Positions 25,595-63,091 of a stretch of DNA of 64,000 nucleotides are shown here, piece by piece. Numbering within the stretch: position 1 is the first letter of the stretch; every line of letters begins with the position of its first letter. Both the position numbers and the translations under genes were made by a program. The stretch lies in assembly GCF_053078305.1 (NCBI RefSeq), contig NZ_CP166879.1; one strand, given 5' to 3'. The notes beneath the pieces are model-generated. The model made no database searches, had not been told where the DNA came from, and saw only the letters and a program-made list of their open reading frames with translations.

Positions 25595-25654
25595 CATTAC
25601 TCACTTATTGCTTTTCAAACAAAATGTCATGCCAGAATTTATGGTTGTAGTGGG

Positions 25655-33446: not shown

Positions 33447-34721
33447 TTACCCCGCCTTGTTATGGGGCATGGTTGGGGCAAACTCGCTTAGCTGTGTATT
33501 TAACAGCGTTACCTGTGCATTATTATTTTCTGACATCCATTTTCCGTACACCTGAAACACCATTTGCGCATCGGCATGCCCCATCTGGTTTGCTATGAAT
33601 GCAGGATTAGCACCAGCTGTTAGCGACCAGCAGGCATAAGTATGTCTCGACTGATATGATTTTCGGTGGCGGAGTCCTGCTCGTTTTATTGCTGCGTCCC
33701 ACATCTGTCTTATTGAGTCAACAGTAAAATGGTCACCATAATTTTTTACTCTCGCTGACACTTCAGGTTGAAAAACAAAGGTGCATTTTTGTTTTTCTGT
33801 TCTGCCATACTCTCTGAGGTGAACATCAATGATATGCTCTTTGCTCAGTCTCGTTAGTGTCATCTGATTCTGGAGGGCCTCGATTGCTGGCTTAATAAGG
33901 TGAATTACACGATTAGTCCCCGCCTGTGTTTTTGGTACCGTAAAATGGTCTTTTGCTAAATTTCTCCTGATCATCATTGTTCCATTTTTCAGATCTATGT
34001 CCTCCCATCCAAGTGCACACAACTCACCAGGGCGAACGCCAGTATAAACAGAAACACACCACAAATTTTTGGCTTGCTGATTTCTGCACGCATCTATAAG
34101 GCGGATAAATTCCTCCCGCGAAAGAGGATCTGGAATGGTTCTTGATTCCTTTAATGGCGATATCCCCTTAAACGGATTATCTGCCAGGTAGCTGTTATCA
34201 ACACCAAACTGGAACACGGCGTTAAGATTTGTCATGTAATTATTTACGGTAACAGCCGATCTCCCGGGTTGTGTAACAATATAGTTACTTTTGGGGATCT
34301 GGTATCCAGTCAGTAACTCTTTACGAACCTCCAGTAATTTTTCTTTATTAATCGATGAGGCAAGATTTTTTTCACCGATTATGCTCAGGATATTTTTGAT
34401 GACGGCACGGTATGTATTGAGTGAACTTCTGGCAACTTCGGCCTCTTTTAGTGCCAGAAATTTTTCGGCCAGTTCACCTATAGTCAAATTTTGTCTGGCT
34501 TCCCCAAATTTTTCCAGATTGTGGGAGTAGGGGAACTGTTTTGCGTAGTCAAAAATCCCCGTTTTTATTGCGTAACAAACAGAAGCGCGTAGTTCACCAG
34601 CGATGCGTCTGTTTTTTACTGTGTCAGGGACACCGAGGTTTTCCCTGACTCTTACGCCTTTATAAACAAACCAGATGCGTAATGTCCCCCCGTGTTTTTC
34701 TACGCCTGTCGGATATTTCAT
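33447..34721 (-). CDS. int: Phage integrase (tyrosine recombinase)
   Basis: 424-aa ORF with C-terminal catalytic R...H-x-x-R...Y region (RHTYACWSLTAG...HADAQMVFQVYGKW); adjacent to the disrupted ydfJ. Confidence 0.9.
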   Translation of the reverse strand: MKYPTGVEKHGGTLRIWFVYKGVRVRENLGVPDTVKNRRIAGELRASVCYAIKTGIFDYAKQFPYSHNLEKFGEARQNLTIGELAEKFLALKEAEVARSSLNTYRAVIKNILSIIGEKNLASSINKEKLLEVRKELLTGYQIPKSNYIVTQPGRSAVTVNNYMTNLNAVFQFGVDNSYLADNPFKGISPLKESRTIPDPLSREEFIRLIDACRNQQAKNLWCVSVYTGVRPGELCALGWEDIDLKNGTMMIRRNLAKDHFTVPKTQAGTNRVIHLIKPAIEALQNQMTLTRLSKEHIIDVHLREYGRTEKQKCTFVFQPEVSARVKNYGDHFTVDSIRQMWDAAIKRAGLRHRKSYQSRHTYACWSLTAGANPAFIANQMGHADAQMVFQVYGKWMSENNNAQVTLLNTQLSEFAPTMPHNKAG

Positions 34722-38631: not shown

Positions 38632-38794
38632 AATGGCAGCCTCTTGGTTGAGTATTAATAACTCACCACCAAGGTTTTCCACGACCATAAGGGTGGTGAG
38701 ACGTACAGGGGTGGAAATACCGGTCAACCAAGAATCCGGCCAGCCTTGCGGCTGCCCTGCACGCCCCACCATAATCTGAATGTGGCTGTGCATT

Positions 38795-38823
38795 ACGCAT
38801 AAAAAAACCGCCTGAGCGCGGTT
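38795..38823 (-). terminator. Weak intrinsic terminator between the DicF-like RNA and the Rha-like gene
   Basis: Minus-strand AACCGCGCTCAGGCGG followed by TTTTTTT; stem only 4-5 bp. Confidence 0.3.
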
Positions 38824-39119
38824 ATGCGCTTGATTGAATTCCGGGTTTCCACGCCCGGCACCCGCTTTATGAGGTGCAGATGAACTATAATTCCACCCGT
38901 TCTGGTTTTCAATAGCTACATTCAACATTTTCTCTTACCCTTCATCACCGAAGTGAACTTTGTTGATGCAGTGCCTGGTGCCTCCAGGTGACGTTAACCA
39001 GTTAACAATTAACGCCGGAATACAGAAGTATGCCCGTTACGCCCCGTAAAAGACCACTTTACGGTTTTAACTGTTCCGCGTGCGCTTAGCCGCATTCACC
39101 GCATCACAAAATTCACTTT

Positions 39120-39177
39120 AAAAAGGGTGGCAGAGCAGTCACGGAGTAGAACTGATGCCACCAAAGACTACACATGG
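39120..39177 (-). ncRNA. dicF: DicF-like small RNA
   Basis: Minus strand reads ...GGTGGCATCAGTTCTACTCCGTGACTGCTCTGCCACCCTTTTT, near-identical to the 3' two-thirds of K-12 DicF including its terminator hairpin; 5' segment diverges. Confidence 0.55.
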
Positions 39178-46094: not shown

Positions 46095-46385
46095 CCTGGC
46101 CTGAAGCATTAACAACGGTAGGAATTGCGATGGCGGTGGCGCTGGTGGTGTATTCGATTTGCCGCTGGGGATAAAAACGGTTTGCGGGAAAAGGAGAGTT
46201 AAGTAGAATTGCAGCGGGTGCTTGAGGCTATCTGTCTCAGGCATGAACACCAAAAGGCAGATAGAGAAAAGCCCCAGTTAACATTACGCGTCCGGCAAGA
46301 CGCTTAACATTAATCTGAGGCTCAATCTGTGAACGGCAAATCTAGGTTAGCCTCTTACGCGCCGAAAGGCAAGGAGAAGCAGGCT

Positions 46386-46541
46386 ATGAAGCAGCAAAAG
46401 GCGATGTTAGTCGCCCTGATCGTCATCTGTATTACCGTCATTGTGACGGCACTGGTAACGAGGAAAGACCTCTGCGAGGTACGAATCCGAACCGGCCAGA
46501 CGGAGGTCGCTGTCTTCACAGCTTACGAACCTGAGGAGTAA
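46386..46541 (+). CDS. hokD: Hok/Gef-family type I toxin (HokD-like)
   Basis: Translation MKQQKAMLVALIVICITVIVTALVTRKDLCEVRIRTGQTEVAVFTAYEPEE; upstream in-frame extension corresponds to the overlapping mok frame. Confidence 0.85.
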   Translation: MKQQKAMLVALIVICITVIVTALVTRKDLCEVRIRTGQTEVAVFTAYEPEE

Positions 46542-48103: not shown

Positions 48104-49153
48104 GTGCGGGTATTACTTCGACCTGTTCTGGTACCGGAACTCGGGATGGTGCTCCTAAAGCCGGGCCGTGAATCAATGTCAGCATTCCATAACGGCAGAA
48201 TATTGGTGGAGCCGGAACCGAAAAACATGCGCGGTCTGCCGTCCGGAGTCGTTCCTGCCGTTCGACAGCCGCTGGCAGAGGATAAAACATTACTGCCATT
48301 TTTCAGCAACGAACGGGTGATTCGTGCTGCGGGTGGCGCTGGTGCACTGTCTGACTGGTTATTACGTCACGTGAAATCCTGCCAGTGGCCACACGGTGAT
48401 TATCATCACAGCGAAACTGTCATTCACCGTTACGGTACCGGCGCGATGGTGTTGTGCTGGCACTGCGACAACCAGCTGCGCGACCAGACATCAGAATCAC
48501 TCGATCAACTTGCTCAGCAGAATCTGGTTGCCTGGATGATTGACGTTATCCGTCACGCAATAAGCAGTACGCAGGAGAGGGAGTTATCGCTGGCCGAATT
48601 ATCCTGGTGGGCGGCCTGCAATCAGGTGGTGGATGCACTACCTGAGGCAGTAGCGCGTCGTTCGCTGGGATTACCAGCGGAAAAAATCCGCTCCGTATAC
48701 CGTGAGAGTGACATCGTACCGGGAGAACAGACAGCCATCAGCATACTGAAGCAGCGCACAAAAAATATTGCGCTGCCACTTCACGTCCACCAGCAACAAA
48801 ATCCACCACAGAAAAAAACGGTTGTCAGTATCGCCGTTGATCCGGAGTCTCCTGAATCGTTCATGAGGCGGCCTAAACGTCGCCGTTGGGTTAATGAGAA
48901 ATACACGCGCTGGGTAAAGACACAGCCGTGTGCGTGTTGTGGTAAGCCTGCTGACGATCCGCATCACCTGATTGGTCATGGTCAGGGGGGAATGGGGACA
49001 AAGGCCCACGATATTTTCACGCTACCGTTGTGCCGGGAGCACCACAACGAACTTCATGCAGACCCGCTGGAGTTTGAGAAAAAGTACGGCTCTCAGATTG
49101 AGTTAATTTTTCGTTTTCTTGATCACGCCTTTGCGACTGGCGTGCTCGGGTAA
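48104..49153 (+). CDS. ydfU: YdfU-like prophage protein (DUF968)
   Basis: 349-aa ORF; C-terminal CACCGKPADDPHHLIGHG...LPLCREHHNELH Cys/His cluster; same length and position as Qin YdfU. Confidence 0.55.
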   Translation: MRVLLRPVLVPELGMVLLKPGRESMSAFHNGRILVEPEPKNMRGLPSGVVPAVRQPLAEDKTLLPFFSNERVIRAAGGAGALSDWLLRHVKSCQWPHGDYHHSETVIHRYGTGAMVLCWHCDNQLRDQTSESLDQLAQQNLVAWMIDVIRHAISSTQERELSLAELSWWAACNQVVDALPEAVARRSLGLPAEKIRSVYRESDIVPGEQTAISILKQRTKNIALPLHVHQQQNPPQKKTVVSIAVDPESPESFMRRPKRRRWVNEKYTRWVKTQPCACCGKPADDPHHLIGHGQGGMGTKAHDIFTLPLCREHHNELHADPLEFEKKYGSQIELIFRFLDHAFATGVLG

Positions 49154-49165
49154 AAGAGGTGACTG

Positions 49166-49525
49166 ATGCTCATAGATTTGGTTTTACCTTACCCGCCGAC
49201 GGTGAACACTTACTGGCGACGCCGTGGCAGCACATATTTTGTATCAAAAGCAGGGGAGCGTTATCGCCGGGCAGTGGCACTTATTGTTCGCCAGCAGCGG
49301 CTGAAATTAAGCCTGTCCGGACGGCTGGCAATAAAAATTATTGCAGAGCCACCGGATAAGCGTCGTCGTGACCTGGACAATATTCTGAAAGCACCGCTGG
49401 ATGCGCTGACGCATGCGGGAGTGCTCATTGATGACGAGCAGTTTGATGAAATCAATATTGTACGTGGTCAGCTTGTTCCTGGTGGTCGGTTGGGTGTGAA
49501 GATTTACAAAATTGAGAGTGAGTGA
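49166..49525 (+). CDS. rusA: Holliday junction resolvase RusA
   Basis: 119-aa ORF MLIDLVLPYPPTVNTYW...RRRDLDNILKAPLDAL matching RusA. Confidence 0.85.
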   Translation: MLIDLVLPYPPTVNTYWRRRGSTYFVSKAGERYRRAVALIVRQQRLKLSLSGRLAIKIIAEPPDKRRRDLDNILKAPLDALTHAGVLIDDEQFDEINIVRGQLVPGGRLGVKIYKIESE

Positions 49526-50094
49526 GCGTAAATATGATATATCCGGAAATTACAGGCAAAAGCGGCGAACATTTACGCCTGAACACGCTGGAAGCAGTCT
49601 GGATCCAGGGGAAATTACGGATGTGGGGGCGGTGGTCGTATATCGGTGGGGGTAAATCCGGAAATATGTTTAACCGGTTACTGGTTTCGAAGAAGCTGAC
49701 GAAAACAGCAGTTAATGAGGTTTTACGCAGAATGAAGAAATCCGGGCTGGAAAAACCGGAACTTGAGGCATTTTTTCGGGATATGACCAGAGGGAAGCAG
49801 AAGAGCTGGTTGTCACATTGTACAGACACAGAGGCGTTGATTATTGATCGCGTTATCAGTGAGGTGCTTGGGGAATATCCCGGGCTAATCAATATTCTCC
49901 GGCAAAGGTACGAAGGACGGGGAATGAGCAAACTGAAAATGGCCGAAAGGTTAAATGCAGATCATCCTGAGTGGACGTTGGTTACGTGCAGACGCCGAAT
50001 TGATCAGTGGTTGGGGATATCTGAATTTATGTTACATGCCCCCATGCGTATGGCTTTTGTTACAGAGAAAAAAATGTTGCAAACTGATCAATAA
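49522..50094 (+). CDS. Putative late-gene antiterminator (Q-like)
   Basis: 190-aa ORF between rusA and the terminators/tRNAs; assignment by position and loose resemblance to QuuD-type Q proteins. Confidence 0.45.
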   Translation: MSVNMIYPEITGKSGEHLRLNTLEAVWIQGKLRMWGRWSYIGGGKSGNMFNRLLVSKKLTKTAVNEVLRRMKKSGLEKPELEAFFRDMTRGKQKSWLSHCTDTEALIIDRVISEVLGEYPGLINILRQRYEGRGMSKLKMAERLNADHPEWTLVTCRRRIDQWLGISEFMLHAPMRMAFVTEKKMLQTDQ

Positions 50095-50163
50095 ACTGCT
50101 TCAATCCGTATAAGCTTCGCAAGGCTGTATCGCGAGGCGAAACGCAAGTTTTTTCGCACAAGG

Positions 50164-50187
50164 AAGCCACCGGAAGGTGGTTTTTTT
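50164..50187 (+). terminator. Intrinsic terminator about 70 nt downstream of the Q-like gene
   Basis: CCACC-GGAA-GGTGG hairpin followed by TTTTTTT. Confidence 0.6.
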
Positions 50188-50310
50188 GTGTCCGTAATAT
50201 ACAGCAGCGCAATAAATTCGCTGGTGGTTATTAATACCGTTCTTTCAGCTTGCTGGCTTGTTCGACAAGAGTTATTGGTGTGTCACGTTAACCGGAAAAA
50301 GGAAAAAGAC

Positions 50311-50508
50311 ATGCTGAAACAGCAGGATATGACCGAAACCGCCAGAGTGGTGTTTAATGAATTAAGCGTCACAGAACCGGCGACAGTCGGGGAGATTGCG
50401 CAGAATACTTACCTTTCACGCGAACGCTGTCAGTTAATACTGACCCAGCTGGTTATGGCGGGTCTGGCAGACTATCAGTTCGGTTGTTACAGACGCCTTC
50501 AGTCCTGA
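50311..50508 (+). CDS. Hypothetical small protein, possibly winged-helix
   Basis: Translation MLKQQDMTETARVVFNELSVTEPATVGEIAQNTYLSRERCQLILTQLVMAGLADYQFGCYRRLQS; AAGGA SD upstream. Confidence 0.45.
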   Translation: MLKQQDMTETARVVFNELSVTEPATVGEIAQNTYLSRERCQLILTQLVMAGLADYQFGCYRRLQS

Positions 50509-50520
50509 AGGCTTTTTTAT
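50495..50520 (+). terminator. Intrinsic terminator overlapping the stop of the small ORF
   Basis: GCCTTCAG-TCC-TGAAGGC hairpin followed by TTTTTTAT. Confidence 0.65.
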
Positions 50521-50658
50521 TTGTGGTAAATGGGCGGCTGGTGGGTGTTAGGGGCACTCACCAGCCATCTGCTCATGCGTCCGGATCACAAGCAAACCTC
50601 AGGCCCACTGCTTTGCGCAAAAGCAGAATGAGCCTATCAGAGACAGGCTTAATGATCC

Positions 50659-51717
50659 ATGCTTAATACTGTAAAAATATCCAGTTGTGAGTTAATCAAC
50701 GCCGACTGCCTGGCATTTATCCGGTCGTTACCCGAAAATTCTGTTGACCTGATAGTCACGGACCCGCCGTACTTTAAAGTGAAGCCTGAGGGCTGGGATA
50801 ACCAGTGGAAGGGCGACGATGATTACCTGAAGTGGCTGGACCAGTGTCTTGCGCAGTTCTGGCGGGTGCTGAAACCTGCCGGAAGTCTTTACCTGTTCTG
50901 TGGCCATCGCCTGGCATCTGATATCGAAATCATGATGCGTGAACGCTTCAGTGTGCTGAACCATATTATCTGGGCAAAGCCGTCCGGACGCTGGAACGGG
51001 TGCAACAAGGAAAGCCTGAGGGCGTATTTCCCCGCCACAGAGCGCATTCTGTTCGCGGAACATTATCAGGGGCCGTATCGTCCGAAAGATGCCGGGTATG
51101 AGGCGAAGGGCAGGGCACTGAAACAGCATGTGATGGCCCCGCTGATTGCTTACTTTCGTGATGCGCGTGCTGCCCTGGGGATAACGGCAAAACAGATTGT
51201 GGATGCCACAGGAAAGAAAAACATGGTGTCGCACTGGTTCAGTGCCAGTCAGTGGCAGCTACCGAACGAAAGCGATTATCTGAAATTACAGGCGCTGTTT
51301 GCCCGGGTGGCAGAAGAGAAGCATCAGCGCGGTGAACTGGAAAAGCCCCACCACCAGCTGCTGGAGACGTATACTTCACTGAACCGGCAGTATGCGGAAC
51401 TGCAGAGTGAATATAAGCATCTGCGGCGGTATTTTGGCGTGACGGCGCAGGTGCCGTACACCGATGTGTGGACGCATAAACCGGTGCAGTACTATCCCGG
51501 GAAACATCCGTGCGAAAAACCGGCAGAAATGCTGCAGCAGATAATCAGCGCGAGCAGTCGTCCGGGGGACCTGGTTGCAGATTTTTTCATGGGGTCGGGT
51601 TCGACAGTCAAAGCCGCGATGGCGCTGGGGCGTCGTGCAACTGGCGTTGAGCTGGAGACTGAACGTTTTGAGCAGACGGTCAGGGAAGTACAGGATTTAG
51701 CCAGTCAGAACGGATGA
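50659..51717 (+). CDS. DNA methyltransferase (N6-adenine/N4-cytosine, DPPY type)
   Basis: N-terminal LIVTDPPYF and C-terminal FFMGSGST motifs; 352 aa with a long insert between them. Confidence 0.8.
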   Translation: MLNTVKISSCELINADCLAFIRSLPENSVDLIVTDPPYFKVKPEGWDNQWKGDDDYLKWLDQCLAQFWRVLKPAGSLYLFCGHRLASDIEIMMRERFSVLNHIIWAKPSGRWNGCNKESLRAYFPATERILFAEHYQGPYRPKDAGYEAKGRALKQHVMAPLIAYFRDARAALGITAKQIVDATGKKNMVSHWFSASQWQLPNESDYLKLQALFARVAEEKHQRGELEKPHHQLLETYTSLNRQYAELQSEYKHLRRYFGVTAQVPYTDVWTHKPVQYYPGKHPCEKPAEMLQQIISASSRPGDLVADFFMGSGSTVKAAMALGRRATGVELETERFEQTVREVQDLASQNG

Positions 51718-51757
51718 TATTGCAGTATTAGTTACGTACCGTTATTATCCTGCACCC

Positions 51758-51833
51758 GGCCCTTTAGCTCAGTGGTGAGAGCGAGCGACTCATAATCGCC
51801 AGGTCGCTGGTTCAAATCCAGCAAGGGCCACCA
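51758..51833 (+). tRNA. tRNA with CAU anticodon, ileX-like (tRNA-Ile2 lysidine type)
   Basis: Cloverleaf GGCCCTTTAGCTCAGTGGTGAGAGC...ACTCATAATCG...GGTTCAAATCC...AAGGGCCACCA; close to E. coli ileX. Confidence 0.75.
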
Positions 51834-51842
51834 TATCACATA

Positions 51843-51919
51843 CCGCCATTAGCTCATCGGGACAGAGCGTCAGCCTTCGAAGCTGGTTGCGCGGGGTTCG
51901 AGTCCTCGATGGCGGTCCA
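51843..51919 (+). tRNA. tRNA-Arg (anticodon TCG)
   Basis: Acceptor stem CCGCCAT/ATGGCGG, anticodon loop CTTCGAA, T-loop GGTTCGAGTCC, 3' CCA. Confidence 0.7.
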
Positions 51920-51932
51920 TTATCGGTATTCA

Positions 51933-52009
51933 GCGTTGTTAGCTCAGCCGGACAGAGCAATTGCCTTCTAAGCAATCGGTCACTGGTTCGAATCCAGTAC
52001 AACGCGCCA
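51933..52009 (+). tRNA. tRNA-Arg (anticodon TCT)
   Basis: Acceptor stem GCGTTGT/ACAACGC, anticodon loop CTTCTAA, T-loop GGTTCGAATCC, 3' CCA. Confidence 0.75.
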
Positions 52010-52178
52010 TACTTATTTTTCTGGCTCGCTTTTGCGGGCCTTTTTTGTATCCGCGCCACGCCCGGCGCATATCAACCACAGAGCCTTTCGGGGGTGAGCT
52101 TACGGAGTGGTCAGTGTGACTTTCTCTGTGGGCAGATCGCTCCCGGGCGTTGGCTCACCCACCCAAAGGAACGTCACG

Positions 52179-52610
52179 ATGTTTGGTATTTTCAAAAAGA
52201 AAACCCGCAGAGCAGCAACGGAAATTAAAAAGTTTGAGAAACGCGATCTGGCACAGGCGGTTATTAATGCTGCCTACCTGGTAGCCTATGCAGATGGTGA
52301 ATGTGAGGCTTCAGAGAAAGCGAAGATCGAACAGGTATTACGTAACCAGCCTGCGTTGTCCGCGTTTACGTCAGAAATTAATGCCATCAGTGCCACGATC
52401 ACAGGTCAGCTTGACACCAACTTTAAAATTGGTCGTCGAGCGGCGTTGCGTGAAATTGAAGATGTGAAACACGATACGCGTGAAGCGGAAGATGTGCTGG
52501 ATGTGGCGGTGGCTATTGCTGAAGCAGATGGTGAAATTGAGCCGGAAGAGCGTAAGGTTCTGGAAGAGATTGCAGGTGTTCTTGGCCTGCGACTGGAGAA
52601 CCACCTGTGA
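52179..52610 (+). CDS. TerB-domain protein
   Basis: Translation MFGIFKKKTRRAATEIKKFEKRDLAQAVINAAYLVAYADGECEASEKAKIEQVL...AIAEADGEIEPEERKVLEEIAGVLGL; AAAGGA SD upstream. Confidence 0.6.
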   Translation: MFGIFKKKTRRAATEIKKFEKRDLAQAVINAAYLVAYADGECEASEKAKIEQVLRNQPALSAFTSEINAISATITGQLDTNFKIGRRAALREIEDVKHDTREAEDVLDVAVAIAEADGEIEPEERKVLEEIAGVLGLRLENHL

Positions 52611-52771
52611 CGGTAAAACTGCGTCTGGCCGCTGTGGCACTCCTGCTGTTTCTGGTGGTGATGGTGGATTTCACCAGCAGGATCATGTCGGTGCTGGCGG
52701 ATGGAGTGCTGGTGGTCGGTATTGTGGTGGTGCTTTTTCCTTTGGTGAAAAAGGACATGCCAGGTAGTTAG
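52607..52771 (+). CDS. Possible small hydrophobic protein translationally coupled to the TerB-like gene
   Basis: GTG overlapping the upstream TGA (GTGA), GGAGA 7 nt upstream; 54 codons, two hydrophobic stretches; below the track length cutoff. Confidence 0.3.
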   Translation: MTVKLRLAAVALLLFLVVMVDFTSRIMSVLADGVLVVGIVVVLFPLVKKDMPGS

Positions 52772-53019
52772 CCGGGTATCAGTCATGCCCCGAAAATTTT
52801 AAATGTCTCACAATTCAGACGGTTGACAGTTGTCTGTTTTGCGGGGAGTTTGTTAAAAGAAACTGGCATGGTGAATCCCCCTGAGCGGAGGGGCGACTGG
52901 TGCATTAGGTGTTATCTTTGATACCTAGGAAAGTGAACGCGCGGGTTTGGTTGCACCGGGCTGAACTCACCGGGAGGCACCCGGCATCATGCGCATGATG
53001 ATACAGATACGCGGCTTTA

Positions 53020-53046
53020 GCCCCTCTCCGGAGGGGCTTTTATATG
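53020..53046 (+). terminator. Intrinsic terminator
   Basis: GCCCCTC-TCCG-GAGGGGC hairpin followed by TTTTATATG. Confidence 0.6.
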
Positions 53047-53072
53047 AATTTTGTAAGATATGAGTAAACTAA

Positions 53073-53408
53073 TTATGGACACTGTTGTTTTAGTCCGTAA
53101 GGGCATATTTGCAGAATGCAATGATTATTAAAGCATTCTTTCAATACGTTATCTGAATTTGCAGGACATTCCTGGCTGTTTTTGATTAAATCCCAGAATC
53201 TTTTATTGAATGGTACAACGTTGTAAATGGTTACAGGTAGCACTTTGTTATTAAGTACGATACCTGTGTGAGTCAACGTAAATATACTTTCAGGAGGTAA
53301 GAAAACATCCGATTGATACCAGATTATTAATTTTATTTTACTCCATATGGCTGAAAAAGATATTCCGCATGATGGCTGGATAACTGTATCAATCACAATC
53401 CACTTCAT
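53073..53408 (-). CDS. Hypothetical Cys-rich protein on an AT-rich antisense island
   Basis: 111-aa ORF with AAGGAGG SD 5 nt upstream of the ATG; seven Cys, five in the C-terminal third; region visibly AT-rich. Confidence 0.55.
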
Positions 53409-53661
53409 TTAGCCTCCTTATTTATGCTGTGCTGGTGATGTTCTGAAAAGTATAAATGATAATTTTGAATGTAAACCATAGAGCAGAATTATTTTTCTGA
53501 TGTTGTTTATTTAAATACAGGTTTTTTATATCCCGTCTTGTAGTTTATCCATGCATACCTGCTTTATGATGAGGTTTTCATTTAAGGTATGGTTTTGTGT
53601 TTTTTTCTGTATTTCATGTCAGGTATTTTAAAGAATTGTTTTTAATATGGTGGAAAGAACC

Positions 53662-55629
53662 ATGGCATTTAAACACTACGATGTGGTCAGGGCGGCGTCG
53701 CCGTCAGACCTTGCGGAGCGACTGACTCAAAAACTGAAGGAGGGGTGGCAGCCATTTGGCAGTCCTGTCGCCATCACGCCTTATACCCTGATGCAGGCCA
53801 TTGCGGCGGAAGGTGATGTCACCACACCTGTGCTGGTGAAGCCGTCGGATGGAGAAGGCACAGTTATCAGCACCACCAGCGAACCGGAGTATTACTTTGT
53901 TGTTGTTCTGGCGGGGCAGTCAAACAGCATGGCATATGGTGAAGGCCTTCCGCTGCCGGAGACATATGACCGTCCGGACCCGCGTATTAAGCAGCTGGCG
54001 CGCCGCAGTACGGTGACACCGGGCGGTGCCGCCTGTAAGTATAACGACATTATTCCGGCGGACCATTGTCTGCATGATGTGCAGGACATGAGCCGTCTTA
54101 ACCATCCGAAAGCGAACCTGTCAAAGGGGCAGTACGGAACCGTGGGGCAGGGGCTGCATATCGGCAAAAAACTGCTGCCGTTTATACCGGCGAATGCGGG
54201 CATTCTGCTGGTTCCGTGCTGCCGTGGTGCTTCGGCATTCACAACGGGTGCAGACGGCACATACAGCGAATCAGCCGGTGCATCGGAAAATTCACTGCGC
54301 TGGGGTGTGGGTAAGCCGCTGTATCAGGATTTGGTGAGCCGGACTAAAGCCGCACTGGCGAAGAACCCGAAAAACCGTCTGCTTGCGGTGGTGTGGATGC
54401 AGGGAGAAGGTGATGCGGCAGTGGGGACGCATGCGCAGCATCCGGGGCTGTTTAGTGCGATGGTGAATCAGTTCAGAACGGAGCTTGCCGGTCTGGCATC
54501 ACAGAGCACAGGAGGCAGCGCATCAGCGGTACCGTGGATTTGCGGGGACACAACGTATTTCTGGAAGCAGCGTCATGCGGAAGGGTATGCATCAGTATAC
54601 GGAGGGTATAAGGGTAAGGAGTCGCAGAACATTTTCTTTGTACCGTTAATGACGGATGAGAATGGTGCGAATGTGCAGACCAATGACCCGGCAGAAGACC
54701 CGGACCTGGAAGCCGTCGGTTATTACGGTTCAAAGTGGCGTAATGACCAGAAGACCTGGACATCTGTGGACAGGGCAAGCCATTTCAGTTCATGGGCACG
54801 CCGTGGGATTATTTCCGACCGTCTGGCAACGGCGATTCTGGTGCATGCCGGGAGAACTGCTGAATTCATTACCGGAAAACAGCCTGATACGGTGAAGCCC
54901 ACCGGACCTTCCGGTGAAGGCCCGGAGAGAGAGCCGGAAGCCCCGGTCAGTAACCGAACCCTGATGAGTCTGCTGGCGTCCGGTGAAGACCTGGCATCAC
55001 AGGGCTGGCGCTATTATCACAAACCGGCGAGCGGAGACAATGTTGATAAAAACATCGCTGAGGCTGTGGTCAGTGATGAGGGTGCCACCGGTGGTAAGGC
55101 CCTGCAACTGAACAAACCGGAAAGCCACATCTGGTTTCTGGAGCATGATGCCGCCGGGCAGGGGGCAGAGTTGCTGAAGAAAGGCGGACGTGTGAGCGTA
55201 CGGTTTAAGGTGCCGGGCTCACTGGTGCCGAATCAGTTTGCCCTGGGTATTTACTGGCAGTTGTCGTCCCTGCCGGAGGGAGTGACGCTGGCAGAGGAAG
55301 GCAACGACATGCTGATGTCCTTCTTCCTGCAGACGGATGCGACGAACCTGAACGCGATGTACCACAAGAAGCAGAATGCGAAGCTGGATACGTTCGGGGT
55401 CTTTGATAACGGATGGCACACACTGGCTTTTGAGTTTGCCGGAAACAACAGCATTCAGGTGACGCCGGTACTGGATGAGAAACGGGGTACACCGTTCACA
55501 CTGGTGAAATCTCCGGCATCAGGGGCGGCGGACAAACTGCAACTGACAGGCATATCAAAGGCGGCGACATATACGTTGCTGATTGACAGTGTGAAGGTGG
55601 AAGTGAACAACGCGGACGCCGCGGCATGA
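53662..55629 (+). CDS. Prophage O-acetyl sialic acid esterase NanS-p-like protein (DUF1737 + SGNH/DUF303)
   Basis: About 655-aa ORF; N-terminal MAFKHYDVVRAASPSDLAERL... segment and VVVLAGQSNSMAYGEG esterase motif; located after the tRNAs and before the lysis genes as in Stx phages. Start could be the ATG at 53647. Confidence 0.7.
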   Translation: MAFKHYDVVRAASPSDLAERLTQKLKEGWQPFGSPVAITPYTLMQAIAAEGDVTTPVLVKPSDGEGTVISTTSEPEYYFVVVLAGQSNSMAYGEGLPLPETYDRPDPRIKQLARRSTVTPGGAACKYNDIIPADHCLHDVQDMSRLNHPKANLSKGQYGTVGQGLHIGKKLLPFIPANAGILLVPCCRGASAFTTGADGTYSESAGASENSLRWGVGKPLYQDLVSRTKAALAKNPKNRLLAVVWMQGEGDAAVGTHAQHPGLFSAMVNQFRTELAGLASQSTGGSASAVPWICGDTTYFWKQRHAEGYASVYGGYKGKESQNIFFVPLMTDENGANVQTNDPAEDPDLEAVGYYGSKWRNDQKTWTSVDRASHFSSWARRGIISDRLATAILVHAGRTAEFITGKQPDTVKPTGPSGEGPEREPEAPVSNRTLMSLLASGEDLASQGWRYYHKPASGDNVDKNIAEAVVSDEGATGGKALQLNKPESHIWFLEHDAAGQGAELLKKGGRVSVRFKVPGSLVPNQFALGIYWQLSSLPEGVTLAEEGNDMLMSFFLQTDATNLNAMYHKKQNAKLDTFGVFDNGWHTLAFEFAGNNSIQVTPVLDEKRGTPFTLVKSPASGAADKLQLTGISKAATYTLLIDSVKVEVNNADAAA

Positions 55630-55768
55630 TAAAAAGAGCCGCCAGCGGCAGGAATGGAAGCTGGCGGAGGTAATCCCAATGGAGAATGTAAAGAAAAGAT
55701 GCTTTCGTACATCGGTTGTTTTTTTAAATGAAAACAGTTCTCATTGTCAACCATAACGGTAAGAAATT

Positions 55769-55948
55769 ATGACATTTATTCATCAGGTGATGCTGTACTT
55801 CTGTACGGCGGTCTGTGTGCTGTATCTTCTTTCGGGTGGGTACAGGGCCGTGCGCGATTTCTGGCGCAGGCAGATTGATAAAAGGGCCGCAGAGAAAATC
55901 AGCGCCAGTCAGTCAGCCGGAAGCAAACCCGAAGAGCCGCTCATTTAG
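55769..55948 (+). CDS. Possible small membrane protein
   Basis: 59-codon ORF MTFIHQVMLYFCTAVCVLYLLSGG...; weak SD. Confidence 0.3.
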   Translation: MTFIHQVMLYFCTAVCVLYLLSGGYRAVRDFWRRQIDKRAAEKISASQSAGSKPEEPLI

Positions 55949-55988
55949 CTGCAACTTTCTTAACAACCATTTTCAACGAGAAAATCCC

Positions 55989-56234
55989 ATGTCAGAAATC
56001 ACATCCCTGGTCACTGCAGAGGCAGTGAAGGAAGTCCTGCGCTCTGAAGAAGTCCTGAGCGCACTGAAACAGAAACTCCGCCAGAACCTTGAGTCGCGTC
56101 TTGATGCAGAAGTGGATGCCATTCTGGATGAACTGCTGGGCGCACCGGCTGTTCCGGAGCCGGAAGGCATTGCGGGTGACGGGAGTGCTTCAGATGGCGG
56201 TGAACCCACACCCGACAGCGACATGATGATGTAA
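55989..56234 (+). CDS. Hypothetical acidic protein
   Basis: 81-aa [25 protein letters not shown]... upstream of the holin. Confidence 0.45.
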
Positions 56235-56310
56235 GCATGCGCAAGGGACCATCGGTGTGTGCCGGTGGTCTTTATATTGTTGTGAGCTTCCGGATTGCGG
56301 GAGACGGGGT

Positions 56311-56526
56311 ATGTACCAGATGGAAAAAATCACAACAGGTGTGTCATACACCACGTCAGCGGTGGGAACGGGCTACTGGTTCCTGCAGTTGCTGGACAGG
56401 GTTTCCCCGTCTCAGTGGGCGGCAATAGGCGTGCTGGGGAGTCTGCTGTTTGGTCTGCTGACATACCTGACGAACCTGTATTTTAAAATCAGAGAAGACC
56501 GGCGTAAGGCGGCCCGGGGAGAGTAA
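56311..56526 (+). CDS. Class II holin / pinholin (phage 21 S-like)
   Basis: Translation [71 protein letters not shown]; dual-start arrangement (ATG 56311 and 56320). Confidence 0.8.
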
Positions 56527-56530
56527 AGCG

Positions 56531-57517
56531 ATGAATAACAAATATGAACTGGTTGTAAAAGGGATAAATCATTACCCGGATAAGATAACTGTTACGGTGG
56601 CACTGGAAATTGCCGGTCAGCCGTCGTTGTTGTCGCCATATGTGGCGATTAGTCTTGACCGTACTGAAGGTGCCACGCTGGAATTTTACGAAGCTGAGGC
56701 GAAAAAACAGGCGAAGCAGTTTTTCATGGATGCGGCTCTCGGATTACGCGAAGGGACTGCGCGATGTGGCTTTCAGAATATTTCTTCATGGACAATGCCG
56801 GAAAAAATCGCCACTTACCCGGGGCGTGAAAAGGTCAACGAACCGGTAAAAAATGCGCCTGATGATGTGCAGAGCGCGATGGTTAATGTGGAGCTTCCGG
56901 CACGTGTGACACCAGGAGTGAAAGTCGGGGAAGATTCTCGTCTTGTGCTGACCAAAAGAATAGGCAGCGTGGTCAGTGTTCATATTGATCATGAGGAAGT
57001 TCTGTCGGTTATGTACAGGGAAGACTACGATCCGAAAACAACATTCAGCGACTATGAAGCGAGAGCAAAGGAGTATGCCTTGTCGGTATTTGCTGCGGTA
57101 CGTGGCGAGGACTGTCGTAAAAACGGGCATGAAAGTGATTTTACTGTGCCTGTGTCGGACAAAAACCAGGAACGGGAGTGTAACCGGCCATCCTTTGTTG
57201 TATCCGGTGATGACGGGAAAATCACCATATCAGAAAATGGAAAAGTAACACCGCCATCGCACCAGCACAGTGAGACGCTCATTGAATTTGCCATTGATTA
57301 CCTGAAGAACAATAAAAAACAGGGGCTGATGAAGCGCATTGGTCGCTGCATGGGATATCTGCAGCTGGCGGCAGAGATTGAAGCACTTGCCAGTGGTGCA
57401 GACAGGGATGCTGCGGTGCGGGAGGCTCTTCTTTGTGATTTCAATACGCCACCCTTTAAGAAAGAGCCTGATGGCTGGATCCAGCCGGGGCTGACTTATC
57501 TTAAAGTGCGTATTTAG
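56531..57517 (+). CDS. Hypothetical 328-aa protein inserted between holin and endolysin
   Basis: Uninterrupted ORF starting 5 nt after the holin stop; no signal peptide and no motif recognised. Confidence 0.6.
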   Translation: MNNKYELVVKGINHYPDKITVTVALEIAGQPSLLSPYVAISLDRTEGATLEFYEAEAKKQAKQFFMDAALGLREGTARCGFQNISSWTMPEKIATYPGREKVNEPVKNAPDDVQSAMVNVELPARVTPGVKVGEDSRLVLTKRIGSVVSVHIDHEEVLSVMYREDYDPKTTFSDYEARAKEYALSVFAAVRGEDCRKNGHESDFTVPVSDKNQERECNRPSFVVSGDDGKITISENGKVTPPSHQHSETLIEFAIDYLKNNKKQGLMKRIGRCMGYLQLAAEIEALASGADRDAAVREALLCDFNTPPFKKEPDGWIQPGLTYLKVRI

Positions 57518-57553: not shown

Positions 57554-58087
57554 ATGAACGCAAAAATCAAATACGGCCTGTCAGCTGCTGTTCTGGCGCT
57601 GATTGCCGCAGGTGCGCCTGCGCCTGAAATCCTCGACCAGTTTCTTGACGAAAAAGAAGGTAACCACAGCACGGCATACCGTGATGGTGCGGGTATCTGG
57701 ACCATCTGCCGTGGTGCCACCCGGGTGGATGGTAAGCCTGTCGTCCCTGGCATGAAGCTGTCGAAGGAAAAATGCGACCAGGTTAACGCCATTGAACGTG
57801 ATAAGGCGCTGGCATGGGTGGCGAAAAACATCAAAGTGCCACTGACTGAACCCCAGAAAGCGGGGATCGCGTCATTCTGTCCTTACAACATTGGCCCAGG
57901 TAAGTGTTTCCCGTCGACGTTTTATAAACGAATTAATGCAGGCGATCGCAGGGGAGCGTGTGAGGCGATTCGCTGGTGGATTAAGGACGGTGGCAGAGAC
58001 TGCCGTATTCGCTCAAATAACTGTTACGGTCAGGTATCCCGGAGAGACCAGGAGAGCGCGCTGGCGTGCTGGGAAATCGACAGATAA
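57554..58087 (+). CDS. SAR endolysin (T4-lysozyme-type, phage 21 R-like)
   Basis: N-terminal signal-anchor-release segment LSAAVLALIAAGA and catalytic E...D...T pattern (EGNHSTAYRDGAGIWTICRG). Confidence 0.85.
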   Translation: MNAKIKYGLSAAVLALIAAGAPAPEILDQFLDEKEGNHSTAYRDGAGIWTICRGATRVDGKPVVPGMKLSKEKCDQVNAIERDKALAWVAKNIKVPLTEPQKAGIASFCPYNIGPGKCFPSTFYKRINAGDRRGACEAIRWWIKDGGRDCRIRSNNCYGQVSRRDQESALACWEIDR

Positions 58088-58579: not shown

Positions 58580-59515
58580 ATGAAATGTGTACTGTATTCC
58601 GGTGACTGTCTTGATGTTATGCCTTCATTACTACCGGGAAGTGTTGACCTGGTTTTATGTGACCCGCCGTATGGAACCATTAAAGGGCTTACACTCCGTA
58701 CATGGGATAAGAGTACGACAGCATGGGACGATGCCTTAAATCCTGAAGATATTTTCACACAGTGCGAACGACTGCTGAGGGTGGGCGGTGTGCTGGTCAT
58801 GTTCAGCCAGGAGCCGCATACAAGCACGATGATTACTCTGGCGGATAAAAACCTGCCGTTTTTATATCGTATGGTGTGGAAGAAGGAGCATTTCCCCAAC
58901 CCGCTTTCAGTAAAAAAAGCACCTGTATCTTTATTCGAGGATATCGTTGTTTTCCGGAAAAAATATGACAGTGAGAAAAACCACCCGCTGAGGGAGTACG
59001 CCCGAAATATCCTTTCTTTCATTGGCCACAGGACAGACAAGGAAGTTAACAAAACACTGGGGCACTGTCGGGCAGAGCATTTTTTTCGCGTGAACACAGT
59101 CCAGTTTTCCCTCTGCTCACAGGATACGTACAACGAGTTAATTAAACGCTTTGGTATCGACCGTATGCCGGGTTTCATGACATATGAAGAAATGTGCAAA
59201 GTGAATTCCGGTTACGGCACTGTGGTTTTTAATCTCCCTCAGGGGAAAAAATACCGCGCAAATATTCTGGAGTACGCGCGGGAGCGGGAGCGATGGCATC
59301 CGACCCAGAAGCCAGTTGCATTACTGGAAGAGCTGATTCAGACGTACAGCAACCCTGGCGACAGGGTACTGGATTTTACTATGGGGAGTGGTTCAACAGG
59401 TGTTGCATGTATCCGGACGGGGAGACGGTTTACCGGAATAGAAAAGGATGACCGGTATTTCGCTGTTGCAAAAAAACGTCTGGAAAAAGAAAACAGTGAA
59501 ATGGTGGTGATATGA
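58580..59515 (+). CDS. DNA methyltransferase (DPPY type), second copy, inserted between endolysin and Rz
   Basis: N-terminal LVLCDPPYG and C-terminal FTMGSGSTG motifs; stop overlaps the Rz start. Confidence 0.8.
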
Positions 59516-59979
59516 ACCGTGTTCTGTGTGTGGTGATTATTGTCCTGCTGGTGGCCTGTGGTGCGCTTAGTCTGGGGCTGAATCATTACCGCGATAACGC
59601 CATCACCTACAAAGCGCAGCGCGATAAAAAAGCCAGAGAGCTGGAGCTGGCAAACGCAACCATTACTGATATGCAGCAGCGCCAGCGCGATGTTGCTGCG
59701 CTCGATGCTAAATACTCGAGGGAATTAGCCGATGCGAGAGCTGAAAATGAAACTCTGCGTGCTGATGTTGCCGCTGGTCGTAAGCGCCTGCGGGTTAAAG
59801 CCACCTGTCCAGGCTCCGTGCGTGAAGCCCCCACCACCTCCGGCGTGGATAATGCAACCGGCCCCCGACTGGCAGACACCGCTGAACGGGATTATTTCAT
59901 CCTCAGAGAACGGTTGATGACAATGCAGAAGCAGCTGGAAGGGGCGAAGGAATATATCCGCACTCAGTGTATTAACTAG
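59512..59979 (+). CDS. Spanin inner-membrane subunit Rz
   Basis: 155-aa ORF with N-terminal TM helix and coiled-coil periplasmic domain; contains Rz1 in the +1 frame. Confidence 0.75.
59732..59917 (+). CDS. Spanin outer-membrane lipoprotein Rz1 (embedded in Rz)
   Basis: Lipobox LVVSAC followed by the proline-rich [27 protein letters not shown] segment, as in lambda Rz1. Confidence 0.65.
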
Positions 59980-60681: not shown

Positions 60682-61191
60682 GTGGCTACGCAGACTGAAG
60701 TTGCCAGGCATTTAAGTCTGACCGATCGCCAGCTTCGCAGATTGCAGAAATTGCCGGGTGCCCCGATATCGAATAAGCGAGGGCAACTGGATCTGGATGC
60801 CTGGCGCGATTTTTACATATCGTATCTGAGAAGAAGTAAAAACGATGTGCCTGATGGCGATAGCGAAGACGACTATGAGGAGAAATTGCTTATTGCCAGA
60901 TGGGAACTGACAGCAGAACAGGCTGTTACACAGCAGTTAAAAAATGAGGTGTCAAAAGGAAAACTTATTGACACCGGGTTCTGTATTTTTGCCCTCAGCA
61001 AGCTGGCAATGGCGTTATCCAGTACGCTTGATTCCATCCCTTTATCCATGCAGCGACAGTTTCCTGATTTAACACCGCGCCATCTTGACCATCTGAAAAC
61101 CCTTATTGCGAAGGGGGCAAATCAGTGTGCGCGGGCGGGGGATAAATTACCGGATTTACTCGATGAATATATCAGAGCAACAACTGAATAA
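60682..61191 (+). CDS. Terminase small subunit (lambda Nu1-like)
   Basis: GTG start with GAGGTGAGGA SD; C-terminal half aligns with lambda Nu1. Confidence 0.8.
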   Translation: MATQTEVARHLSLTDRQLRRLQKLPGAPISNKRGQLDLDAWRDFYISYLRRSKNDVPDGDSEDDYEEKLLIARWELTAEQAVTQQLKNEVSKGKLIDTGFCIFALSKLAMALSSTLDSIPLSMQRQFPDLTPRHLDHLKTLIAKGANQCARAGDKLPDLLDEYIRATTE

Positions 61192-63091
61192 TATGATGAG
61201 CGCTGTCACAACAGCATTACAGCCCCTGATAAGGGCATTGCCGGTGACGCCAGTTGAATGGGCTGATCAAAATTATTATCTGCCTAAAGAATCTTCATAT
61301 GGTGAGGGAGAATGGAAAACGCTGCCGTTCCAGATCGCCATCATGAACAGCATGGGGAATGATCAGATCCGGACTGTTAATCTGATTAAATCTGCCCGTG
61401 TTGGCTATACAAAGATGTTGCTGGGAGTCGCCGGGTATTTTATTGAGCATAAATCCCGAAACAGTCTGCTTTTTCAGCCCACGGATTCTGCCGCTGAAGA
61501 TTTTATGAAGTCTCACGTGGAGGCGACGATTCGCGATGTTCCCTGCCTGAAAAAACTTTCTCCCTGGCTGGGACGTAAACATCGTGATAATACCATCACG
61601 CTGAAACGCTTTTCATCGGGTGTGGGTTTCTGGTGCCTGGGTGGTGCGGCAGCAAAAAACTACCGTGAAAAATCCGTGGATGTGGTCTGCTATGACGAGC
61701 TTTCCTCGTTCGAGCCGGATGTTGAAAAAGAGGGCTCGCCAACCCTGCTGGGGGATAAGCGTATTGAGGGCTCGGTATGGCCAAAATCCATTCGCGGCTC
61801 GACGCCAAAAATAAAAGGTTCCTGCCAGATCGAAAAAGCGGCCAACGAGTCGGCGCATTTTATGCGTTTTTATGTGCCCTGCCCACACTGCGGGGAGGAG
61901 CAGTATCTGAAATTTGGCGATGAGTCCACGCCTTTTGGCCTTAAATGGGAGAAGGACAGCCCCGAAAGCGTTTTCTACCTCTGTGAACATCATGGCTGCG
62001 TGATCCATCAGTCTGAGCTTGACCAGAGCAACGGGCGGTGGATCTGTGAAAACACGGGGATGTGGACCCGTGATGGTCTGACGTTTTTCAGCGCTGCGGG
62101 TAATGAAATTCCACCGCCGCGCTCCATCACGTTCCACATCTGGACGGCGTACAGTCCGTTCACCACCTGGGTACAGATAGTCTATGACTGGCTGGATGCA
62201 CTGAAAGATCCCAACGGCGTGAAAACCTTTGTGAACACCACGCTGGGCGAGACCTGGGAAGAGGCCGTGGGCGAAAAACTCGATCACCAGGTGCTGATGG
62301 ATAAGGTTGTGCGTTACACAGCGGCGGTGCCTGCCCGGGTGGTTTATCTGACGGCGGGTATTGACTCGCAGCGAAACCGTTTTGAGATGTATGTCTGGGG
62401 ATGGGCTCCGGGAGAGGAAGCCTTTCTGGTGGATAAAATCATCATTATGGGGCGTCCCGATGAGGAAGAGACGCTGTTACGTGTGGATGCGGCGATCAAC
62501 AAAAAATACCGCCATGCAGACGGAACCGAAATGACCATTTCCCGTGTCTGCTGGGACACAGGGGGGATCGATGGCGAAATTGTCTATCAGAGGTCAAAAA
62601 AACACGGTGTTTTCCGGGTGCTGCCGGTAAAAGGTGCATCTGTTTATGGCAAGCCGGTGATCACCATGCCAAAAACCCGCAATCAGCGGGGCGTGTATCT
62701 GTGCGAAGTGGGGACGGACACCGCAAAAGAAATTCTCTATGCCCGTATGAAAGCCGATCCCACGCCTGCGGATGAAGCCACGTCGTATGCCATCCGTTTT
62801 CCTGATGATCCGGAGATTTTTTCGCAGACAGAGGCGCAGCAACTGGTGGCGGAAGAGCTTGTGGAGAAGTGGGAAAAAGGAAAGATGCGTCTGCTGTGGG
62901 ATAACAAAAAGCGGCGTAACGAAGCGCTGGACTGCCTGGTGTATGCCTACGCGGCATTACGTGTGTCCGTGCAACGCTGGCAGCTTGATCTGGCTGTACT
63001 GGCAAAATCCCGGGAAGAAGAGACGACCCGGCCAACCCTTAAAGAACTGGCAGCGAAGCTGTCCGGAGGAGTGAATGGTTACAGTCGCTGA
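61163..63091 (+). CDS. Terminase large subunit (lambda gpA-like)
   Basis: Translation MNISEQQLNNMMSAV...; long stretches match lambda gpA (AVEWADQNYYLPKES, KSARVGYTKMLLGV, EGSVWPKSIRGSTPK, CPHCGEEQYLKFGD, KKRRNEALDC). Confidence 0.9.
   Translation: MNISEQQLNNMMSAVTTALQPLIRALPVTPVEWADQNYYLPKESSYGEGEWKTLPFQIAIMNSMGNDQIRTVNLIKSARVGYTKMLLGVAGYFIEHKSRNSLLFQPTDSAAEDFMKSHVEATIRDVPCLKKLSPWLGRKHRDNTITLKRFSSGVGFWCLGGAAAKNYREKSVDVVCYDELSSFEPDVEKEGSPTLLGDKRIEGSVWPKSIRGSTPKIKGSCQIEKAANESAHFMRFYVPCPHCGEEQYLKFGDESTPFGLKWEKDSPESVFYLCEHHGCVIHQSELDQSNGRWICENTGMWTRDGLTFFSAAGNEIPPPRSITFHIWTAYSPFTTWVQIVYDWLDALKDPNGVKTFVNTTLGETWEEAVGEKLDHQVLMDKVVRYTAAVPARVVYLTAGIDSQRNRFEMYVWGWAPGEEAFLVDKIIIMGRPDEEETLLRVDAAINKKYRHADGTEMTISRVCWDTGGIDGEIVYQRSKKHGVFRVLPVKGASVYGKPVITMPKTRNQRGVYLCEVGTDTAKEILYARMKADPTPADEATSYAIRFPDDPEIFSQTEAQQLVAEELVEKWEKGKMRLLWDNKKRRNEALDCLVYAYAALRVSVQRWQLDLAVLAKSREEETTRPTLKELAAKLSGGVNGYSR

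Follow-up and report, generated by a model that had tools for sequence, protein, structure and literature searches.

The three tRNA genes of the Stx-converting phage 933W (AF125520) are annotated as ileZ (AUA), argN (CGH; CGG?) and argO (AGA; AGG?), with Q lying directly 5' and stx2AB directly 3' of them, and the same cluster is present in VT2-Sakai, Min27 and other Stx-converting phages. In one published account (PMC3491183), the layout of Stx2 phages runs from rusA over Q, a methylase gene and the tRNAs to the cargo, a yjhS-type esterase gene and the lysis genes. The same codons (AUA, AGA/AGG and CGG) are targeted by ileX/ileY and argU of K-12 and by 'Sixpack'-type sets (argU, ileX, argX), and added tRNA gene copies relieve rare-codon limitation in argU, ileX, argX helper strains (PMC12053594). 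Larger sets, some of them with demonstrated anti-nuclease roles, are known from lytic phages like T4, T5 and their relatives, and their proposed roles include codon compensation as well as counter-defence (PMC10264068, PMC11555353). Queries of the open-access literature on ileZ/argN/argO and on 933W in combination with rare codons gave no match, and the tRNAs are not mentioned in a paper on pR' diversity.

In the 64,000-nucleotide stretch analyzed here (the window), a trio of tRNA genes with the anticodons, order, strand and spacing of the 933W cluster is located in the late region of a lambdoid prophage (Table 1). It differs from the tRNA sets of T4 and T5 in comprising three genes only, in its temperate lambdoid context and in having CAU and UCU anticodon loops that match those of the host, and its phage-borne position in a late operon sets it apart from the tRNA genes of the K-12 host. 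As annotation of this cluster dates back to the genome of 933W, the trio as such is already known, and the window holds an ordinary copy of it in a prophage without toxin.

Table 1. Features of the prophage around the tRNA trio (window coordinates).
Feature	Position	Strand	Evidence
Tyrosine integrase, adjoins rspA/rspB; lambdoid prophage from here to window end	33447-34721		
DUF968	48104-49153	+	Pfam
RusA	49166-49525	+	Pfam
Q-like antiterminator, DUF1133 / Phage_antitermQ	49522-50094	+	PF06576 4e-104, PF06530 1e-7
Hairpin CCACC-GGAA-GGTGG then T7, candidate tR' of late promoter region	50167-50187	+	Read from sequence
Small ORF, with terminator at 50495-50512	50312-50508	+	Sequence, terminator scan
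N6/N4 DNA methyltransferase, 352 aa	50659-51717	+	PF01555 6e-44
pT-like sigma-70 promoter, TTGCAG, 17-nt spacer, TATTAT	51720-51748	+	Read from sequence; aligned to 933W pT
tRNA-Ile2, ileZ type, presumed to be lysidine-modified and to decode AUA	51758-51833	+	ARAGORN CAT (CAU); Rfam 72.5 bits
tRNA-Arg, argN type, cognate CGA, CGG possible by wobble	51843-51919	+	ARAGORN TCG (UCG); Rfam 53.4 bits
tRNA-Arg, argO type, decodes AGA, probably AGG	51933-52009	+	ARAGORN TCT (UCU); Rfam 70.1 bits
Intrinsic terminator, GGCTCGC-TTTT-GCGGGCC then T6	52023-52046	+	Terminator scan
Variable cargo slot, stxAB in Stx phages; here TerB, DUF3927, STnc100-like sRNA, IraM-like ORF	52058-53660		
TerB family	52179-52610	+	Pfam
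DUF3927	52607-52771	+	Pfam
STnc100-like sRNA	52837-53049	+	Rfam
IraM-like ORF	53073-53408	-	RefSeq name in STEC1590
SASA/DUF6645 carbohydrate esterase, nanS-p / yjhS type	53647-55629	+	Pfam
DUF826	55815-56234	+	Pfam
Holin	56311-56526	+	Pfam
DUF1327 protein	56531-57517	+	Pfam
Lysozyme	57554-58087	+	Pfam
Second N6/N4 methylase	58580-59515	+	Pfam
Rz	59512-59979	+	Pfam
Nu1	60682-61191	+	Pfam
Terminase large subunit	61106-63091	+	Pfam

In the 64-kb window ARAGORN calls three tRNA genes and no more, each on the plus strand, and together with Rfam it reproduces exactly the coordinates (51758-52009) and anticodons that an earlier note had given for a tRNA trio. The tRNA model RF00005, with a gathering score of 29, matches each gene end to end (model positions 1-71 of 71) at whole-window E-values of 6e-14 to 1e-8. 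The covariance-model alignments yield a full cloverleaf for all three tRNAs, and A27.C43 in the first tRNA is the sole non-standard pair across the trio, so that the tRNA-prediction check proposed in the earlier note was passed by every member. The 3' CCA is encoded in all three genes, as read from the sequence, and the spacers between them are 9 and 13 nt long. Folding by minimum free energy (MFE) did not produce a cloverleaf for any of the three tRNAs (z-scores -4.0, -1.2 and -2.0). MFE folding is known to perform poorly on tRNAs, and we treat this outcome as a limit of the method, not as evidence against the genes; MFE folding was dropped as a test in favor of the covariance-model alignments. 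By cloverleaf and by scores above the gathering threshold the trio belongs to the tRNA class (Rfam RF00005).

The first gene with its CAU anticodon had been called ileX-like, and this description is confirmed by an identity of 68/76 positions (89.5%) to K-12 ileX in comparison with 52/77 (67.5%) to metT; the anticodon loop is the same as that of ileX. Alignment to ileX and metT furthermore revealed the pairs C4-G69 and C5-G68, both of which are required by E. coli TilS (PMC1635315), at the sites where tRNA-Met has U4-A69 and A5-U68. The listed IleRS identity elements A73, C29-G41, A37 and A38 (PMC9976931) are present as well. Judged by its sequence, the first tRNA is a lysidine-type tRNA-Ile2 and not a tRNA-Met. 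ARAGORN labels the gene tRNA-Met, as do many GenBank records of Stx phages, but this label is derived from the anticodon alone, and RefSeq in close relatives as well as the 933W annotation have tRNA-Ile; that the gene is an ordinary elongator tRNA-Met, leaving the trio without AUA decoding, is thus extremely improbable, and we rejected this identity on the ileX similarity in combination with the TilS determinants. For annotation the gain is that the CAU gene should be labelled tRNA-Ile2 instead of tRNA-Met.

Both remaining genes have A20 and C35, together with G36 in the UCG species and U36 in the UCU species, and their discriminators (U73 and G73, respectively) fall within the A/G73 and U73 listed for bacterial tRNA-Arg (PMC9976931, Table 1). 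The two genes therefore carry the bacterial tRNA-Arg identity elements and are predicted to be charged with arginine. C1-G72 and U73 of the UCG tRNA are invariant in 42 distinct copies. Its anticodon does not occur among the K-12 tRNA-Arg genes compared (argU UCU, argX CCG, argQ/Z/Y/V ACG), to which the gene is only 58-66% identical, and the Arg species known in K-12 are ACG, CCG, UCU and CCU only. Reading of CGG by the UCG anticodon is possible by wobble, depending on the modification of U34. The UCU tRNA shares the anticodon loop CUUCUAA with K-12 argU, including the canonical A37, whereas the whole gene is only 72.7% identical to argU. A G37 variant of this loop (CUUCUGA) is found in argO of 933W and in three other variants, which amounts to 4 of the 42 distinct sequences.

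Compared with 933W, ileZ is identical, argN differs at two positions (U27.G43 here instead of C27-G43, plus one base in the variable loop) and argO differs at one (A37 here, G37 in 933W). Going by the sequence-level features compared, we assign the trio to the ileZ-argN-argO cluster family. Over its 252 nt it is 100% identical to the copy located directly 5' of stxA2b/stxB2b in E. coli 2012EL-2448, and it differs by a single substitution in the D-loop of argN from the copy in a non-Stx prophage of E. coli STEC1590 (NZ_CP129345), where the trio is annotated as tRNA-Ile, tRNA-Arg and tRNA-Arg.

The trio seems to come with signals of its own, the sequences of which align with features of 933W. 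The pT-like promoter ends 9 nt upstream of the first tRNA and aligns, with one difference in the spacer, to the 933W sequence annotated as 'pT; putative tRNA promoter', an assignment that is made solely by this alignment. With 8 of 12 matches it stays below the threshold of the consensus scan (9/12) and is for this reason missing from the scan output. Downstream of the trio, the intrinsic terminator aligns with the 'possible rho-independent terminator upstream of the stx genes' of 933W. The promoter, the three tRNAs and the terminator look like a small transcription unit of their own, embedded in the late operon after Q and the methylase and before the cargo, esterase and lysis genes. This is in line with findings in EHEC (Sakai), where a promoter that seems to transcribe the tRNAs has a mapped primary transcription start (PMC7547250). 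The consensus scan lists no plus-strand promoter in the interval from Q to the tRNAs and hence did not locate pR', the late promoter; the palindrome which we read as a candidate tR' was listed by the terminator scan on the minus strand.

The gene order around the trio is that of the published Stx2 phage layout (PMC3491183), and like in 933W the trio follows Q and precedes a nanS-p-type esterase gene and the lysis genes; esterase and lysis genes are arranged in this way in the Stx2b prophage, too. Together with the 933W homology this supports the view of the earlier note that the arrangement is the one found after Q in Stx and related lambdoid phages, and Pfam agrees with the proposed position between a methylase gene and a TerB-family gene. 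Unlike in 933W, the 5' side consists of a DUF1133-type Q gene, a small ORF and the 352-aa methylase gene, and on the 3' side TerB, DUF3927, an STnc100-like sRNA and an IraM-like ORF replace stx. Genes for StxA and StxB, which directly follow the tRNAs in Stx-converting prophages, are not found at this place, and a tblastn search with StxA2b (E <= 1e-3) detected no StxA homologue in the 64-kb window. We therefore regard the prophage as a stx-negative relative of Stx phages with the same late-region scaffold and a different cargo, and the trio is consequently not linked to toxin expression here.

The same organization (methylase, trio, TerB, DUF3927, IraM, esterase) is found in the STEC1590 prophage, which is collinear with positions 50179-56527 of the window at 96.8% identity and has the same cargo, but possesses an 822-bp antitermination gene instead of the 573-bp DUF1133 Q gene. 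The segment from the Q gene to the hairpin with the T7 stretch (49508-50178) represents a swapped module: in the closest relatives its flanks are 88-97% identical, but a different antitermination gene of 822 bp is present. Homology to the Stx2b prophage covers positions 50179-52057 at 97.6% identity, breaks off shortly behind the terminator and sets in again at the esterase gene. In the relatives found in IMG/VR the cargo slot is occupied by Stx, TerB, IraM or nothing, and due to these differing contents the interval behaves like a hot spot where cargo is exchanged, right behind the terminator of the tRNA unit.

Some of the cargo deserves a remark. The STnc100 match is full-length (140.9 bits) and ends in an intrinsic terminator (53019-53038). 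Its region shares 72-75% identity with the stretch directly 3' of stxB in 933W and in the Stx2b prophage, so that toxin phages may have a related RNA behind stx. The ORF on the opposite strand encodes 111 aa without a Pfam match, its collinear gene in STEC1590 is named anti-adapter protein IraM in RefSeq, and its 6 AUA codons in 111 place it among the most AUA-dense ORFs of the window.

According to the earlier note the trio supplies tRNAs for codons that are rare in E. coli, and a comparison of codon usage between late prophage genes and host genes had been suggested. We compared 39 prophage ORFs (33400-64000) with only 32 host ORFs (positions 1-33300), on the basis of heuristic ORF calls, which limits the test, and computed odds ratios within each synonymous family. 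The four codons out of 59 synonymous ones that are most strongly over-used in the prophage relative to the adjacent host part are AGG (0.6 per 1000 codons in the host and 6.1 in the prophage, odds ratio 7.5), AGA (1.3 and 9.1, odds ratio 5.3), AUA (4.6 and 10.1, odds ratio 3.1, p 6e-9) and CGG (3.9 and 12.6, odds ratio 2.5), and all four are readable by the anticodons of the trio if the usual U34 wobble is allowed. The proposal consequently holds for AUA and AGA, but not for CGA, which is not over-used in comparison with the adjacent host ORFs (3.8 and 5.7 per 1000 codons, odds ratio 1.0, not significant); the relevant CGN codon is CGG. An AT bias was rejected as cause of the rare-codon excess, as the overall GC content is nearly equal (50.0% in the host part, 49.5% in the prophage) and the GC-rich codons CGG and AGG are enriched. 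The expected enrichment of rare codons was thus found, but it is not specific for late genes: the over-use in early prophage genes is at least as strong as downstream of Q, which argues against the tRNAs being specifically an aid for late genes. For a temperate phage, the comparison cleanly illustrates at a local scale how tRNAs and codon usage are co-adapted. In relatives with the toxin, stxA2 contains 15-17 AUA and 6 AGA in 320 codons.

The cluster is widespread. The trio segment matches 292 phage records, most of them Stx-converting, and near-full-length matches are present in 2578 of 5426 complete E. coli genomes (about 48%), with up to 13 matching places per genome. None of the complete E. 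coli genomes has the exact prophage: over 6 kb, the closest match reaches 97.4% identity at 89% coverage, and at least 80% of this 6-kb region is covered in only 18 of the 5426 genomes. In addition, we searched IMG/VR with the ileZ anticodon arm and inspected 120 loci, of which 42 have the full trio, 20 a decayed middle tRNA and 6 no recognisable third one. In 45 of 62 loci the closest upstream gene that was recognised is the methylase gene, and the first recognised downstream gene encodes Stx in 7, TerB in 14, IraM in 15 and the NanS esterase in 16; by these counts the arrangement in the window is common.

Among the 42 distinct copies, the fraction of polymorphic sites is 7% in ileZ, 18% in argO and 31% in argN, and increases to 46-89% in the spacers and 72-93% in the flanks, with the qualification that the loci were seeded on an exact 15-nt match to ileZ and filtered by ARAGORN detection, and that the exact seed favors ileZ. 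The stem pairs are kept paired in 95-99.7% of cells, and purifying selection on the tRNA genes is visible in this pattern. In 20 of about 70 related IMG/VR clusters argN is beyond ARAGORN detection, so that some lineages can clearly dispense with it. A recurrent decayed form of argN has the anticodon arm replaced by an unrelated stretch, AGACGACACGATAACAGGGTTGTTGGTG, and other forms show a disrupted T loop and mismatches in the acceptor stem; the decayed copies lie between the CAU and UCU tRNAs, for example in loci L012, L029, L039, L041 and L053.

We consider it likely that the trio consists of functional tRNA genes, a copy of the ileZ-argN-argO cluster that supplies tRNAs for rare codons. 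In the lysogen the pT-like promoter would provide basal expression, which Q-modified read-through could raise after induction. RNase P and 3' processing would then release the three tRNAs, host TilS would convert the CAU tRNA into an AUA reader by lysidine modification, and IleRS and ArgRS would charge the trio. The additional supply is expected to speed up translation of AUA, AGA/AGG and CGG/CGA codons, in the manner of the laboratory helper sets made from argU, ileX and argX. Most of these are used several-fold more often in the prophage than in the neighbouring host genes, and the matching host tRNAs are scarce. The missing enrichment of CGA, which is the Watson-Crick cognate of the UCG anticodon, counts against an explanation by codon supply, as does the decay of argN in some lineages, and the strong over-use in early genes is a misfit for a late-gene-specific role.

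Since E. coli genomes have up to 13 places that match the trio, it could also, if expressed constitutively in the lysogen from its own promoter, act as a genome-wide dosage control for rare-codon-rich acquired genes; or its main benefit could lie in backing up the tRNA-Arg and tRNA-Ile2 pools against tRNA-targeting toxins. In the first case rare-codon-rich prophages other than its own, islands and virulence factors would be served rather than the phage itself. We regard these roles as unlikely, and they would not change what the trio is.

Another explanation, which we rate as quite improbable, is counter-defence, with the trio replacing host tRNAs that are cut by anticodon nucleases and codon matching not being its purpose. 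Colicin D acting on tRNA-Arg and effectors of the PrrC, retron or PARIS type would be candidate targets of such a system. This function has been proposed for phage tRNAs in general and was shown for tRNA-Tyr of T5 and tRNA-Lys of T1/T7 (PMC10264068, PMC11555353). The low identity of the UCG tRNA to the K-12 tRNA-Arg genes compared, none of which has its anticodon, would fit, and so would the G37 variant in the anticodon loop of some argO copies including 933W. However, host ileX and argU have the same CAU and UCU loops as the copy in the window; accordingly, our search of its anticodon loops for a signature of escape mutations found none. Moreover, the tRNAs of the trio correspond exactly to the four most over-used prophage codons, as is predicted by codon matching and not by a defence target, and we know of no nuclease aimed at tRNA-Ile2.

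Very improbable in our view is also a mainly architectural role, in which the trio serves as recombination anchor or module junction for cargo swaps (stx, TerB, IraM or none), or as an RNA-processing or insulating element, and its supply of tRNAs is secondary. Such a role is suggested by the end of the Stx2b prophage homology just after the terminator (52057), where the cargo differs, by the varying downstream genes in the IMG/VR loci and by tRNA bodies which are far more conserved than their flanks. A mere anchor, however, would not need cloverleafs, paired stems, synthetase and TilS identity elements or an encoded CCA, and the match to the over-used codons would be left unexplained. In addition, mosaic junctions at conserved segments are general in lambdoid phages and do not call for a dedicated function. 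That the genes are captured host tRNAs now decaying as neutral passengers, for which the degenerate argN copies and the 6 loci with an unrecognised third tRNA could be put forward, is highly improbable, as all three genes are intact in the window, ileZ and argO vary far less than the flanks, and near-full-length copies occur, often several per genome, in about half of the complete E. coli genomes. Codon supply by functional tRNA genes thus stays our preferred reading.

Several minor observations concern the remaining parts of the window. The second methylase gene sits within the lysis cassette, flanked by the lysozyme gene and the Rz gene, and its protein is only 26% identical to the methylase encoded 5' of the tRNAs. 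In the holin-lysozyme interval, only residues 1-74 of the 328-aa ORF match DUF1327; the segment 56527-57169 is without homology in the two closest relatives, where a 185-aa hypothetical protein is encoded instead. Rfam matches at 38689-39176 (minus strand) and 46216-46391 (plus strand) comprise a group formed by C4 antisense RNA, isrK and DicF in the early part of the prophage and, further on, a sok antitoxin RNA, which implies a hok/sok module. In the host part, two adjacent ORFs of 808 aa each on the minus strand (23171-25597 and 25655-28081) look like tandem paralogues.
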